Source of the DNA: a bacterium
GTDB lineage: Bacteria > RBG-13-61-14 > DATKZS01
Direction of reading: 5' to 3'
Assembly: GCA_963674965.2 (NCBI GenBank)
Contig: CAXXFL010000007.1
Location: forward strand, 96,001 to 160,000
DNA length: 64,000 nt
A program made the position numbers. Positions 36,001-42,000 of the stretch are shown piece by piece. Positions within the stretch are counted from its first letter, which is position 1, and each line of letters opens with the position of its first letter.

Positions 36001-39000
36001 GCGCGTCAAGTCGTAAATATCCCTTGCGGCGGCCCCGTTGACCACGGGGCCGTCTCAATTTTTTTCAGTTGCGGATAGATGGGGTTGATCTATTATCAGG
36101 TGAGCGTCGCCAATCCGGCGATTACTAACAATACCCTGGAAGGAGATCGACATGAAAAAGACCGCGGTAGTAATGCTCGTGCTTTTGGCCCTGGCCCTGG
36201 GTTACGGTATCGGACGCCACGCCTCCCTGGTAAGCGAGGCCATAGCCGGGCCTCGCGACGGCGGCGCGGGCCTGCCCGCCTCGAACAACCCCAAGGTATA
36301 CATCGACCGCAATACCCGCGTAGCCTGCTATTACAACGAGGCGGGCATAAGCTGCGTTGCAATTGACCGCGTGGAATACGGCCCACGCGCGGCCGTTCTC
36401 GCGACAAAAAAAAACGGGGGGAAGCTTTGCGGCCTCCCCCCGGGCTAGACAGGATCGGTACGTTTACCTGGTCACCTCGATTTGTATGGGCCGGGTCTCG
36501 ATCCTCTGGTCGGGATTATAGTATTGATAGGCGCTCGATTTGGGCGCCTGGGCCTTGACCGGAAACTTGGCCTTGAGCTGGTAATCGAACTTGAGGGGCT
36601 TGCCAGCTTCCATCCTCCTTACGTACACGGTGATCTGCCTTCCCGTGGCCGTGAACTTCTCGATGGTTTTATCCTCCTTCATCCTCTCGAAGGCGTCGGG
36701 TATAAGCGAGAAGCCAGGCGGGACGCCAAGGTCGAGTATGACCATGTCCGTGGCCTTCTCTCCCACGTATTCGGCCGTGACCGAGGCGGTGAGCAGGTCG
36801 TCCTTGGCCAGCTTGGTCCGGTCGTATTTGAGGTCCAAAGAGAGAAGCGGCTGGACTTCGATTTTCTTCAGCAAGTCCCAGGGCAGATAATAAATCCCCA
36901 CTACCTGGTACATAAGGCCCAGGTCATCGGGGGCCTGGATATCGACTTTGTGGACGCCCGTTCTCGTCTGGTCCTTGAAGTCCACCAGCCTGAGCACGTC
37001 CGAGTTCTCCGGCGTTATCTCGATCATCTCCTTCCTCTCGCCCAGCGCCACGGTTATATCGCCCTTCACGTCGGGGGCTTTGCCTTCCTCGGCCGCCAGC
37101 ATGGCCTTGAGGGACAATATGGTGGCCTGCGTGCTCTCGAAGGTACCGAAGGCGTCCTTTTGTTGGCCCAGCCAGGCCAGGCCCTGGTTGGCCGTGTTGG
37201 GTGACGCGTTGGCCTGGATAATGGCGTAGACGATAAGGGCCGTGGTCTCGATCATGGCCGACTTGCCGCTTCCATGCACGGCGGTCTCGCCCGCGGGTTC
37301 CCAGTGGGCGGTCCCGGTTTTCTTGTCCTCGATCTTCATGCCCTCGAGCTTCCTTAAAAGTTCCCTCGCGTCCTTGTCCGACGGGTCGGCCGCCACCATG
37401 GCGTTAAGGGCCAGGGCCAGGGTATAGGCGTCCTTCATTTTTTCCATGTTGTCCTTTAAGTAGGAGATCGACTTGTCCAGGGCCTCGCCCTTGTAGCCGG
37501 ACTCGGCCAGGGCCCAGGCAATATAAGCCGTGTTAAGCTCGACCGACTTGGAGAAGTCCTCGCCCGAAAGGGTTTCGAGCCAGTGCTCGACGGGCTTCCA
37601 GGTTCCGTCGCTTTCCTGCTGGCCCACCAGCCAGTTCTGGGTCCGGGTAATGACCGACTCGTCGATGGGGTAGACCTTGCTCATGTCGTAAAACTCCATG
37701 AGACCGTAGGCGGTCAGGACCTTATGGGCCGGAGGGTTGCCGAACCACTCGAAGCCGCCGCCGGGCACCTCGAAGCTGAGCAGGCGCTGGTATCCCACGT
37801 TGATGAAGCCCTCGGCCTTCATCTGTATTTCGGGGCTGATGGTCCCGGTTTTTTTCATGTAGTTCAGGACCATGACGTTGGGGTAGGTGGTGGAGGTCGT
37901 CTGCTCGAAGCATCCGCTGGGCATTCTGAAGATGCCGTCCATGCCCTCGAGCACCTGGGCGAATACTCCGGGGTAGACCTTGACCATGACGCGGCTTCCG
38001 TCCTTGACGGCGGCCTCGGGAATCTCGATCTCCTCGGTAAGGGGGCCCGTAATCCTTCCGTTGCGGACAACCTCGAAGCGCTTGCCGTCGGGCACGACCT
38101 CGACCGTCCGCTTGACCGCGTCGCTCATTTTACCACCGATGGCGTAGACGGTAAGGGCCTTCCTACCCACGTCCACCGCCTTGAGTCGGAAGTATCTAAC
38201 GTCCACCTGGCCGCTTTCGAGCCGGAGTTCCTGGACGGAGTCGGACAAAAGCTCGAAGCCGTCGCGTTCCCTGATCTCGAGCTTGACCGTCTGGGAGCCG
38301 GGAAGGTAGTTGTAGACCTGCACCGGTATCTCGACCTCGTCGTTCTGAGTCAGTTGGACCGGGAAATCGATATCGGCGAAGAAATCCTGGAACACGCGTA
38401 TGCCGCTCACGCCCGATCCCAGGTTCCCTCCTCCGGAGTGGGCCAGGGCGGTGAGACGCCAGGTAGTGATCGAGTCGGCCATGGGCACGGCCAGGGAAGC
38501 CTCGCCAAAGCGGTCGGTGATCAGGGCGGGCTCCCACCACAAGGTCTCGGGGAAATACTCGCGTACGCGGATTTTCCCGCCGCCTTCCGAGGATGTATCC
38601 GGCTCTTCGTGACCGCCGCCGTTTTTCTTTCTCATTTTGGGCGCCGTCTCGGGCATGGCCGCCGTGTCGCGCATCATGGCGCCGCCGAGGGCGATCCCGG
38701 GAAAGTCCGCGATTTTATCGATCAGGCCCTCCTCTTCGGCGAACATCCACCTGTGGCTCCCACCCAGCCGGCTTAGGTAAGGATGGGAGGAATAGGCGTA
38801 GGGGTCCGCCACGTCGTCGTCGGTCCCCGCCTTACCGTCGGGTCCGGCGGAGAAGACCTGGAAATGAGGATAGGGCCCGCCGTAGGGGTTGGTCTCGTCA
38901 TCGCCCAGCTTGCGGATCATGAACTTCTCGCCCCACGGGTCCACGTCGGCGCCCTTGTCGAGATATCCTTTGTCCAGGAGCTTGTCCATAACGTCGTCGG

Positions 39001-42000
39001 GAATGTCCGCCGGGGCGTCGTTGGCAAAGAGCTTGTCCAGCCAGGACCTCTGCTCGTCGTAATAATATCTGTCCAGGGCGTTGTAGAATTTATGCAGCCT
39101 GAAGGAGGCCACCCCCCTGGTCACGGCGTAGACGTCCATGGAAGGGTCCAGGGTCTTGAGTATCTCGGGAGTATAGGGATTGCCAAAGGGATCGTTTACG
39201 TAGTCCTTGGCCAGGTCGCCCTCTTTTTCCATGAGGGAGCCAAGGTCCTCGATGTAATCCCACGTGCCCTTTTTCTTCTCGATGAAAGGGTGGTCGTAAG
39301 AGTAGGCGAAGAAGGCGGTCATAAAGTTCTCGATCCTTCCCCTCTCATTGTCCATCCTGGTTTTGGCCGGGTTTTCCTTCCATCCCATCTCGGTGGGTTT
39401 TTCCACGCCGGCGAGAAGGACCTTCATTACCTTGTCCTTTTTGCGCCGGGCCTCGGCGTCCTCCAGGATGAGGGACTGGACCGATTCACCGCCCGGTGAG
39501 AGGTGTATCTCGTAGCGCGGCTTGGCCAGTTCCTCCTCCAGGGTGAAGTAGACCTTGAGGAGACCGGGACGCATGTCCTGGATGGCGAACACGCTCTCGT
39601 CCACGATCGAGACGCCCAGGGCCGCGGCCTTGCCTTTGCCGCTTTCGTCTGTGACCTTGAAACTCAGAAGGGCCTGTTCTCCGGGCCGGTAAACGTCCTT
39701 GTCCAGGGACACGCTGATCTTGAGGTCGGAGGGAGGCTCGACGTACACGACCTTGGCGTCCCTTACTATCTCGCCGGAGGGAAGGATCATGTAGGCGTGC
39801 GTCTCGAGGGTCCCGAAAAGGTCGGGCCCGAGGGTGATGGTATGGGCGGCCTTTCCGCCCGCCAGGTCGAGCGACCTGGTCAGCACGGTCCTTCTGTCCT
39901 TGATCACGTCCAGGTAGGCCGTGCCCGAGGAAAAGGTGGAAAGCACCGTGAGTTTCACCTCGTCGCCCGACCGGTATACCGCCTTGTCCGAGCGGAGGAG
40001 CACGTTGTCCTTCAAGGCGTCGGCGGAAAGGGTCCGGGTGGCGGTCACCTTGGCGCCGTTTTTGGCCTCGGCCTTAATCTTGGCCTCGATCACGTAGGCG
40101 GGCTTGTTCCGGACGGAGGGATCGAACTGCCAGTCCTGGTATCCGACGTCCTGGCTTTTAAAGTCCTCCGGGTCGGGGGTAAAGGAGAACTCGGCCACCC
40201 CGACGTCGTCGGAGTCGGCCGTGAGCTTCTCGCCTCCGATCTCGATCTCGATACGGGCGCTCACCGGCTCGTCGTTGGGGGTGCTGGTCACGGCGAAGAT
40301 TTTGTTCTCGACGCCGGGAATGATCCTTCCCGCCTCGGGAACCAGCTCGACTCGGAGGTCCGAGGCCGAGACCTTGCGCTCGATAAGGGCGGACTCCTCA
40401 TGGTCCGCCGTGTCCGTGACCTTGGCCTCGATTTTGATGAAGGCGTCGCCCTTCTCGAGGGGCTGACCCACGAAGTGGCCGGGCAGGGTGAGGTCGAACT
40501 TGAACGACCCGTCCTTGTCCGTCTTGCCCGAGGCCTCGGCCACGTCGTGGAACTCGACGTCAAAGGCCTGGGCCACGACCTTCACGTGGCCGCCCGACAC
40601 GGGCTTGCCGAAAAAGTAATTGGCGTCCACCGTGCCGGTGAGCTTGTCGCCGGGCGCGTAATAGGACTTGTCCGTCTCGAGGGAGACCTTGAACTTGGGC
40701 AGCACGTACTTCTTGACGGTCACGCTCTTCTCGGTCTCGCGCTCCCCGACCATGGCCCTGACCGCGTACTCGCCCATGCGAATCTCGTCGGCCAATTGGA
40801 AGTCGGCCGAGGAAATCCCGTAGCGGTCGGTGAAGTCGCTTTTCTTGAAGACCTTGTTGCCTTGAGGGTCCTCGACCTCGATGGTCACCTTGCGCCGGGC
40901 CACGGGGCTAAGGTCGGAGGTCTTGAGGGACACCGAGCGGATATGAATCAACTGGCCCGGCTGGTAAAGGGGCTTGTCCGTGGAAAGGAGTATGCGGTAT
41001 TTGGGCTTTAGCTCGATCGCGTGTTTCTTTTCGACCTCGCCCAACTCGGAGCGGACGTTAACGATCAGCTCGTACTCGCCGGGGGAAAGGTCGGGCACGC
41101 GGGCGTCATTGTCCACCGTGCCGTTGGAGTCGGTCTTGGCGAAGAGGACGCGGGAGGGGCCTTTATCGCCCTTCAAGGATATCTCGACCTGGGCGCCCTG
41201 GATGGGCCGGGATTCCTTGAGGGACACGGCCTCGACAACCACCACCCGGAAGGCCGCCTTGCTCCCCGGGTCCAACTCGTCGGGACAGAATATGAACACG
41301 TCCTGTACGGGACGGGGCTTGCCCGCGTCGGAGACCAAAGCGAACAGCATCGCCAGGGCCGCGATAGTTAACGTTAAAAAAACCCTTCTCATTTATGTTT
41401 CCTCCTTCTGGGGATTTGGATAATCACCTTGCCTGGACGCTGATAATACCACCTGGGCCGAGCCCGTTCCATGAATTTTACCTGGACGCCCGGCGGGGCC
41501 CTTTTTTGATTTTAACGGCCTTATTCCGGAAAGGTTCGACCGTTTCCATTTTTTCCGATAAATGTTAATGTTCTTAGTCATGGAAAACCTGCATATGGCG
41601 GCCGATTGGCTCGCGCTCTCGGGCGCGCTTTGGGCCGGAGCTTCTCTTGGCCATTTCCTTTCCACCGAGGAGTCGGCGGGCCGGCGTTTTCTACTTAAGA
41701 TATTCGCCAGATGGGTCGAGGTCCCGCTGTTGTGGTTCATCTGGGTCGTCTGCCGGGGGCCTCTTAGCTTCGCGCTTAAAATTCCCGGCGCGAGGCCGGT
41801 GCTCGGGACCCTGGTAACGAGGCCCTTCGGTCTTTGGATGGACACGGGCGTTCCCGTTCCCACCAAGGACGTGATGAAGATGATCGACGCCCTTGACGGC
41901 CGCGTGGCGGTGGGCGACTGCCGCTGCCGCCTGGCCAAGAAGACCTGCGACCATCCCATGCGGGCCGATATAGTTTTCCGGACGGGCGCCGAGGCCTGGC

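Follow-up and report, generated by a model that had tools for sequence, protein, structure and literature searches.

A 64,000-nucleotide stretch of bacterial DNA (hereafter the window) carries on its minus strand, at positions 36464..41392, a gene (P0001) for a 1642-residue macroglobulin whose architecture is that of animal proteins. Together with other proteins bearing the thioester motif GCFEQ, it belongs to a family for which our analyses support a widespread clade apart from the conventional bacterial alpha-2-macroglobulins (A2Ms). From sequence and predicted models we propose, with a probability of roughly 0.65, that the protein is a secreted, soluble and probably monomeric covalent protease trap with an animal-type trigger. 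Two bacterial macroglobulin types are described in passages of PMC5764988. The survey's finding on this DNA had added a third class; its animal-type architecture and pocket and its separateness from types I and II are borne out, but not a single third class, because a second clade, with the motif GCGEQNM, is closer to the animal proteins and there are thus at least two animal-type prokaryotic classes.

Gene, genomic setting and similarity searches

The open reading frame has no internal stop codon and agrees with the Pfam matches on an intact 1642-residue protein with GCFEQ, MG3 and receptor-binding domains, as the survey had described it. A Shine-Dalgarno-like AAGGAGG (41401..41407; this and all further features on the minus strand) is located 8 nt 5′ of the ATG, and a terminator-like hairpin of 11 pairs with a T run behind it (36415..36442) was found by pattern search directly 3′ of the stop codon. 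The search gave 17 matches, this hairpin being one of the two longest, while shuffled sequences average 6.8 matches of any length. The gene is apparently its own transcription unit.

Homologs of PBP1c and of the yfa/mag genes are absent from the whole window, in keeping with the earlier statement that the gene lies in neither a PBP1c nor a mag operon. With E. coli YfaA, YfaT, YfaQ and YfaP as queries, zero matches were obtained in the window or in 84 family loci, and a PBP1c gene adjoins none of 84 family loci versus 33 of 72 conventional loci. Across 85 family loci, 40 of them with more than 1.5 kb on both sides, we found no conserved partner gene, whether protease, receptor or secretion gene. 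The plasmid search returned only 7 weak conventional matches.

In phmmer searches of the PDB the best matches are all animal proteins, and the previously reported scores were reproduced (A2ML1 6.1e-66, CD109 1.1e-61, A2M 2.7e-59, Salmonella A2M 2.3e-11), as was the reverse result for the control g02689, the A2M beside PBP1c in the same genome (1.6e-84 bacterial, 6.3e-9 animal). This contrast overstates the gap between animal and bacterial proteins, because some conventional bacterial A2Ms without a solved structure reach up to 151 bits, with animal-type proteins at 74–172 bits. Orthologs (43–66% identity) were likewise recovered in 6 of 12 kin genomes, as was GCFEQ in 120 of the 120 best matches. 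The 5,544 matches counted before were approximately reproduced (5,551 among 8,000 scored), but they had to be rejected as a family size because other macroglobulin groups pass the same threshold, as the survey itself had suspected: 18 of 18 GCGEQ-clade proteins, 27 of 27 animal-type CD109/A2M/C3 proteins, 13 of 13 algal-type and 24 of 27 conventional bacterial proteins.

Domain architecture and thioester pocket

The architecture is animal-type, comprising eight MG domains, an RxxFP plug, a YVLP channel, and a pocket of Met and three Tyr in MG8. Pfam matches above cut-off are MG2, MG3, A2M_BRD, A2M, TED_complement and A2M_recep; in the 1642-residue protein none of the bacterial bMG Pfam families exceeded the cut-off, no NCBIfam model matched, and neither an anaphylatoxin nor a C345C domain was matched by Pfam, the chain stopping at MG8. 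A Sec signal peptide without lipobox, judged by eye from the sequence (about residues 1–23, 41324..41392), probably directs export without a lipid anchor; a lipobox-like pattern occurs in 21 of 228 family members by pattern test. The only two cysteines are residues 36 and 1161.

The predicted model places MG1–MG5, MG6a and the start of the linker at about residues 28–632 (39497..41311, boundaries approximate). Its best structural matches are the beta chains of C3, C4 and C5; the C3 beta chain aligned whole (Z 20.2, rmsd 4.8, 559 residues), and the comparison with Salmonella A2M, starting at Salmonella residue 282, gave Z 14.3 and rmsd 9.9 over 399 residues. Extra N-terminal MG domains are absent and MG2 starts at residue 134, as in animals. 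Most relatives have an N-terminus about 100 residues longer (median MG2 start 234), and 42 of 183 resemble the protein studied here. By alignments, YVLP occupies residues 229–232 (40697..40708) in the MG2–MG3 linker, which in A2ML1 forms the channel with its YVLP according to passages of PMC9156758. A bait-like region (residues 868–942, 38567..38791), variable, rich in Gly, Ala and Glu and predicted to be disordered (pLDDT below 50), has a mean identity to the family of 0.13 versus 0.55 for the thioester domain (TED). It is followed by the plug REYFP (residues 944–948, 38549..38563), aligned with Arg730–Pro734 of A2ML1, whose R, F and P are present in 267, 267 and 265 of 268 family proteins.

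The TED, at about residues 1143–1436 between two CUB halves (37085..37966), was delimited by Pfam TED_complement (3.8e-49) and the model. It contains GCFEQ at residues 1160–1164 (37901..37915), and its Cys1161 and Gln1164 are found in 268 of 268 family proteins. Receptor-binding-type MG8 (36467..36856), recognised by Pfam A2M_recep and alignment, ends the protein. Judged by alignment, Met1550 and Tyr1622, Tyr1624 and Tyr1625 form the predicted eukaryote-type thioester pocket, all in MG8; plug and pocket residues are kept in 247–267 of 268 family proteins. The MG8 Met is present in 20 of 20 GCFEQ-clade, 18 of 18 GCGEQ-clade and 27 of 27 animal-type proteins and in 0 of 27 conventional bacterial ones. 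Four residues before the thioester Cys the protein has Met instead of Tyr, and Tyr or Phe occurs there in 0 of 20 GCFEQ-clade versus 26 of 27 conventional proteins; the conventional-type pocket of TED tyrosines and C-terminal Met-Tyr is found in none of 20 versus 26 and 24 of 27, respectively. This pattern matches the distinction between eukaryote and bacterial pocket residues drawn in passages of PMC4498604, which also define the thioester pocket; Salmonella A2M shows no change in native gels or SAXS on treatment with methylamine alone. The C-half model (pLDDT 88.8) has a TM score of 0.77 to native A2ML1, CD109 and A2M and of 0.33–0.34 to activated C3b, and TEP1 was matched with VIA Z 38.8; bacterial A2Ms are absent among the matches listed and so have no C-half score.

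Human A2ML1, CD109 and A2M (PDB 7q1y, 8s3o, 7von) share MG1–8, CUB and TED, bait, plug, channel and the four MG8 residues with the protein, and the GCFEQ-family profile scores them at 300–339 bits. They differ by an identity of about 20–24% and by GCGEQN in place of GCFEQT, while the 1642-residue protein is without their disulfide set or GPI tail, has a GspG-like insert, carries Glu at the His/Asn site, and belongs to a clade outside the eukaryotic one. With type I proteins (E. coli ECAM/YfhM, Salmonella Sa-A2M), which the same profile scores at only 43–46 bits, it has in common the CxEQ motif, the bait and an exported protein of monomer size, but it is without PBP1c neighbour, lipobox, extra N-terminal MG pair, TED tyrosine lock or bMG Pfam domains. 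Type II proteins (P. aeruginosa MagD, E. coli YfaS) share the macroglobulin scaffold with a bait region; unlike them, the protein retains the thioester motif, and yfa/mag genes are absent from the 84 family loci. The same genome carries a separate, true type I gene.

Phylogenetic position and direction of transfer

Of 388 unrelated genomes, 16 carry members of the GCFEQ clade. A phylum is given for 63 of 80 family loci, and these represent at least 17 named phyla. A second prokaryotic clade, from Chloroflexota and archaea, is marked by the exact motif GCGEQNM, a conserved His and a short linker (median 123 residues); with its GCFEQT motif, a linker of 347 residues and a separate branch, the 1642-residue protein is not a member. 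In the trees, of which the 61-row tree was built by a quick method and in which type II proper is without a named row (E. coli yfaS, a pseudogene, was omitted), animal and algal proteins nest inside the GCGEQNM clade, and the eukaryotic proteins group without the GCFEQ clade with support 100/100. AU tests rejected the GCFEQ clade and animals as one group (p 3e-68), which rules out a recent animal origin of the clade, and the GCFEQ clade joining eukaryotes (p 6e-6), which rules it out as their direct sister. The direction of transfer, previously left open, is thereby narrowed, since descent from within animals is rejected. Given the conventional bacterial A2Ms as assumed root, the tree suggests transfer from prokaryotes to eukaryotes.

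The transfer hypothesis reportedly goes back to Budd et al. 2004, where some of these sequences may be shown. Bacterial A2Ms are usually read as transfers from animals (passages of PMC13069473 and PMC9156758), and the parts of the literature consulted divide bacterial macroglobulins into two types, both probably of animal descent, and date the family's origin to the time after sponges had diverged. In line with these accounts and with the exclusively animal best PDB matches, the animal-like scores would be accounted for by a gene acquired from an animal or by a contaminating contig. We consider this very improbable, as the gene lies on a 1 Mb contig of a 97.6% complete genome, has a host-like GC3 (0.84 versus 0.85 for the type I gene of the same genome), has orthologs at 43–66% identity in 6 of 12 kin and relatives in at least 17 named phyla, and transfer from within animals is contradicted by the AU test (p 3e-68). 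The only variant compatible with the latter result has the root inside eukaryotes, with all prokaryotic A2Ms derived from one early eukaryotic gene.

On balance, we lean towards the view that the animal-type thioester machinery arose in prokaryotes in its entirety, with eight-MG ring, plug-in-channel trigger, MG8 pocket and catalytic His, that GCFEQ proteins are a deep branch of it, and that eukaryotes received the ancestors of C3, A2M, CD109 and the algal proteins by transfer from the GCGEQNM clade, near its Chloroflexota members. If true, this overturns both the common account of transfer from animals to bacteria and the early-animal origin of the family. The origin of complement and A2M becomes testable through a broad prokaryotic branch with animal-type trigger and pocket whose sister clade includes the eukaryotes, and a microbial donor is indicated. 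Methanosarcinales A2M homologs (PMC8416519, e.g. WP_015053894) have an animal-type C-half; the supplementary alignment of that paper includes GCGEQNM, which assigns them to the sister clade and not to the GCFEQ clade, and its passages call them close kin of bacterial A2Ms, with no tie to eukaryotic ones in that part. A literature search covering mostly papers outside subscription found none describing the GCFEQ clade (zero matches for 'GCFEQ') or the GCGEQNM clade as defined here.

Proposed function and the GspG-like module

By homology, Cys1161 and Gln1164 would form a thioester hidden against MG8. Cleavage of the bait (residues 868–942) by a foreign protease would release the REYFP plug from the MG2–MG3 channel, MG8 would let go of CUB-TED, and the exposed thioester would couple chiefly to amines of lysines in the protease. 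According to passages of PMC7864068, a trap that works as a monomer depends on covalent capture, and amines are preferred at Asn-type sites. In alignments, Glu1273 (37574..37576) stands where C3, A2ML1 and CD109 have the His that directs reactivity to hydroxyls; with this apparent replacement, the thioester would most likely be mainly amine-reactive. Hydroxyl reactivity may persist, since the loop has a pLDDT below 50 and His1270 is three residues away. Several observations stand as counterpoints to the protease trap: the predicted model may echo solved animal structures, 74 of 268 relatives retain His in the catalytic column, and a simple trap does not account for the GspG-like module. According to a passage of PMC9156758, insect TEPs have the same architecture and are not known to inhibit proteases.

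This module (residues 766–867, 38792..39097, Pfam T2SSG above cut-off) lies between linker and bait and resembles the globular head of GspG/PulG, the major pseudopilin of type II secretion, down to DPWG and an acidic loop at the C-terminus; in contrast to a pseudopilin, it is embedded within a macroglobulin and its N-terminal membrane helix is missing. T2SSG was matched in 32 of 51 aligned family members, and the module profile matched solved GspG with E 6e-10. The module occurs in 179 of 238 family members and in 0 of 149 other macroglobulins, a domain pairing thus absent from all others tested here. No second copy was found at the DPFGNPY stretch. In the protease trap it may be a swappable accessory, serving as decoy, docking site or calcium-stabilised spacer.

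Alternatively, the module could attach the protein to the machinery of type II secretion or of type IV pili, and the thioester, opened by a protease of the same cell, could act as a covalent adhesin or cross-link the envelope. Its retention in most members, the DUF1559 in one member and the carboxypeptidase-regulatory-like domain in one Acidobacteriota member at the same stretch, and pilin-like genes close by in 3 of 85 loci speak for such a link, which appears improbable given that the membrane helix needed for pilin assembly is missing, 59 of 238 members have no module, and secretion genes are not conserved nearby in the 85 loci.

In C3, the anaphylatoxin domain occupies the place that corresponds to the GspG-like module. 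This folded module before the plug, the resemblance of the N-half to C3/C4/C5 beta chains and the His in 74 of 268 relatives would also suit a tagger like C3 or TEP1, in which proteolysis exposes the thioester for attachment to a surface in the vicinity (that of a predator, a competitor or a phage, or the cell's envelope) and the module is a released signal or ligand. C3/C4/C5 and insect TEP1 share the MG ring and the TED–MG8 docking, but the 1642-residue protein is without their anaphylatoxin and C345C domains, catalytic His and partner genes. Since the protein has Glu in the column of the catalytic His, neither a protease nor a receptor gene is conserved next to it in 85 loci, and a protease inhibitor, A2ML1, has the same His, we regard tagging as rather unlikely, though less so than a pilus or secretion link, and prefer the protease trap. 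For the animal mechanism, GCFEQ proteins are disulfide-free, unglycosylated subjects that occur naturally both with and without the His, and one family member is present in the cultured species Chthonomonas calidirosea.

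Architecture and thioester pocket of P0001

The macroglobulin P0001, which the survey's finding had described as animal-type, is encoded by an intact, stop-free open reading frame of 1642 aa (36464-41392, minus strand) with a strong ribosome binding site and its own terminator-like hairpin; the genes around it, encoding YjbQ, a ferredoxin-like protein and three RDD proteins, are all unrelated. The reported scores, far better for animal A2ML1, CD109 and A2M than for Salmonella A2M, were reproduced in a PDB search. Two genes of the genome, P0001 included, bear a thioester domain (TED), and the second indeed gives the reverse pattern; it adjoins PBP1c and carries bMG3, bMG5 and bMG10. 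Orthologs in 6 of 12 kin genomes were likewise recovered. GC3 of the P0001 gene is 0.84, versus 0.85 for the type I gene of the genome, and the closest homolog with an informative name belongs to 'Deltaproteobacteria bacterium RBG_13_61_14' (63% identity across the C-half).

AlphaFold2 models were used for residues 28-950 (pLDDT 83.9) and 933-1642 (pLDDT 88.8). The N-half model aligns whole to C3, C5, C4 and A2M (Z 18.5-20.2, ~560 residues) and to Salmonella A2M with Z 14.3 and an rmsd of 9.9 over 399 residues, from Salmonella residue 282; the C-half model reaches TM 0.77 to native animal forms versus 0.33-0.34 to activated C3b. Because models can echo training structures, more weight was given to residues. 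In the parts of PMC9156758 consulted, YVLP is the channel and RxxFP the plug, together initiating activation; P0001 has them at 229-232 and 944-948. According to passages of PMC4498604, the thioester pocket consists of TED tyrosines in bacterial A2Ms versus a Met and three Tyr of the last macroglobulin domain (MG8) in eukaryotes. P0001 carries the eukaryotic set (M1550, Y1622, Y1624, Y1625) and a Met at Cys-4. Among 112 aligned proteins, the MG8 Met occurs in 20 of 20 members of P0001's prokaryotic family, the GCFEQ clade, versus 0 of 27 conventional bacterial proteins, and the TED aromatic lock in 0 of 20 versus 26 of 27.

P0001 has an export-type N-terminus without a lipobox, an intact thioester motif, plug, channel, pocket and bait. 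A foreign protease would cut the bait, the plug would withdraw, MG8 would then free the TED, and the thioester would capture the protease via amines (compare the excerpts of PMC7864068). With a probability of roughly two in three, P0001 is such a protease trap, working in the same way as A2ML1 and A2M, all within one superfamily. A C3-like tagger, on which the column of the hydroxyl-directing His bears, is rather unlikely; this column holds His in 74 of 268 relatives and Glu1273 in P0001, an assignment that is tentative given the low model confidence of this loop and the proximity of His1270.

The GspG-like module and the bait

Residues 766-867, not remarked on in the survey, are similar to the globular head of GspG, a pseudopilin of type II secretion. 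A profile built from an alignment of 51 such stretches matched solved GspG in eight sequences, the best at E 6e-10, and 32 of the 51 stretches match Pfam T2SSG. The module occurs in 179 of 238 full-length GCFEQ-clade members and in none of 78 GCGEQ-clade (the second prokaryotic animal-type clade), 44 eukaryote-type and 27 conventional proteins. While this likeness might suggest a pilus-linked role, we regard that as improbable. Some other GCFEQ-clade members have different modules in the same stretch. No conserved neighbour gene was found around 85 GCFEQ-clade loci, 40 of which have flanks > 1.5 kb on both sides. The bait that follows the module is variable and disordered.

Two prokaryotic animal-type clades

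Cys and Gln of the thioester motif are kept in all 268 GCFEQ-clade proteins (120 from the first homolog search and 148 more). Clustered at 50% identity, the family comprises at least 150 groups with E < 2e-168. Seventeen named phyla are represented among the best 80 of at least 566 confirmed GTDB loci, most often Armatimonadota (17 loci), Acidobacteriota (13) and Planctomycetota (9); another 17 of these loci lack a phylum. At least 16 of 388 unrelated genomes, a sample spread across families rather than random and usually scored for at most two candidates each, hold such a gene. The 5,544 matches cited earlier do not measure family size, as other groups clear the same threshold; some conventional A2Ms score up to 151 bits, as high as animal-type proteins (74-172 bits). 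Most members have ~100 more N-terminal residues than P0001, and the strict arrangement of eight MG domains is therefore demonstrated for P0001, not the whole family.

A metagenome scan with the animal motif P-x-GCGEQNM, meant to collect eukaryotic sequences, returned at least 118 loci, of which ~80 of the 118 listed were judged prokaryote-type, 31 with an unbroken ORF of at least 1325 aa, flanked by two-component, sigma-factor and panB genes. Named members come from Anaerolineae, Dehalococcoidales, Chloroflexota and Thermococci; the His motif is kept in 75 of 78 and a lipobox-like pattern in 51 of 78. The same scan led to algal proteins of Micromonas, Pyramimonas, Prasinoderma and a Gymnodinium transcriptome. 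OLS27023 and OLS16413, presumably Asgard-related records, were left out of the trees. These archaeal TED proteins carry YGCCEQT and YGCVEQT, not GCGEQNM (PMC8416519, supplement file 1). Methanosarcinales proteins in the supplementary alignment of that paper have GCGEQNM. Three green-algal proteins were known earlier and interpreted, in the excerpts of PMC9156758, as animal-derived transfers.

The survey's 'third bacterial class' holds in so far as P0001 stands apart from types I and II, to neither of which, as described in passages of PMC5764988, it belongs: its pocket differs, and PBP1c or yfa/mag genes occur at 0 of 84 GCFEQ-clade loci, PBP1c being present at 33 of 72 conventional loci. Its closeness to animals is surpassed by the GCGEQ clade in the trees. 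No description of P0001's clade was found in the literature searched.

Several proteins deserve separate mention. Group X (L274 and L276 in genomes G139 and G292, P0417, P0418) is long-branched and GCFEQ-type without the FPE plug motif; G292 has two copies, and P0417 and P0418 combine an FHA domain with a degenerate thioester motif. L305 (G147), a 1600-aa macroglobulin with an animal-like MG2 position and no thioester motif, does not match any of the groups. In each of two related genomes, one GCFEQ gene coexists with one GCGEQNM gene (L254, L272 in G171; L255, L273 in G322). P0410 (1479 aa, GCGEQSM) branches between both clades and is useful for rooting. The GCGEQNM-clade proteins L163, L132, L121 and L157 extend N- or C-terminally past the macroglobulin core, by eye with dockerin- or lectin-like sequence.

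Phylogeny and minor features of the locus

In a C-half FastTree of 112 rows, the GCFEQ clade had support 99, and the eukaryote-type rows (100), with P0001 outside, were nested in the GCGEQ group; a 61-row IQ-TREE under a mixture model, with quick search only, left the topology unchanged. A careful search on 35 rows gave 100/100 for conventional proteins, for eukaryotes and for GCGEQ plus eukaryotes (divergent P0410 excluded), 100/96 for eukaryotes with three Chloroflexota-type rows and 81/96 for the GCFEQ clade with group X. The AU test rejected grouping the latter with animals (p 3e-68) or with all eukaryotes (p 6e-6), and the eight GCGEQ rows as a single group (p 0.0006, a set chosen after the tree was seen). 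Animal-to-bacteria transfer is still the stated hypothesis in the parts of PMC13069473 consulted; for P0001, origin from an animal gene appears highly improbable. Independently, a tree of the N-half (47 rows out of 49, the others having no usable region) gave 99 each for the GCFEQ clade, GCGEQ plus eukaryotes, and eukaryotes, leaving the nesting of eukaryotes within GCGEQ unsettled. The root was assumed; weak support for it comes from the midpoint, which lies on the branch leading to conventional A2Ms. Limits of the trees include uneven composition, the labelling of several 'algal' and 'CD109' rows by similarity, and the lack of named type II, human and non-bilaterian rows. The finding allows the origins of complement and A2M to be put to the test.

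At the locus itself, a 98-aa ORF (36152-36448, plus strand) with a signal-like start is convergent with the macroglobulin gene and spans its terminator hairpin; it has no match in Pfam or NCBIfam. Three tandem RDD-domain paralogs of ~2 kb each (42490-48159, plus strand; 652, 646 and 556 aa) follow, the first and second ending in an identical Pro-rich tail with middles 60-83% alike, and the second having lower GC, which looks like duplication plus gene conversion at the 3' end. On the minus strand, 29706-34921 holds a small putative envelope-glycan cluster, where translation reading gave a sulfotransferase-like protein, an MraY-like transferase, an NAD-dependent epimerase and a DegT-type aminotransferase, besides a polysaccharide deacetylase, the sole member with a Pfam check.
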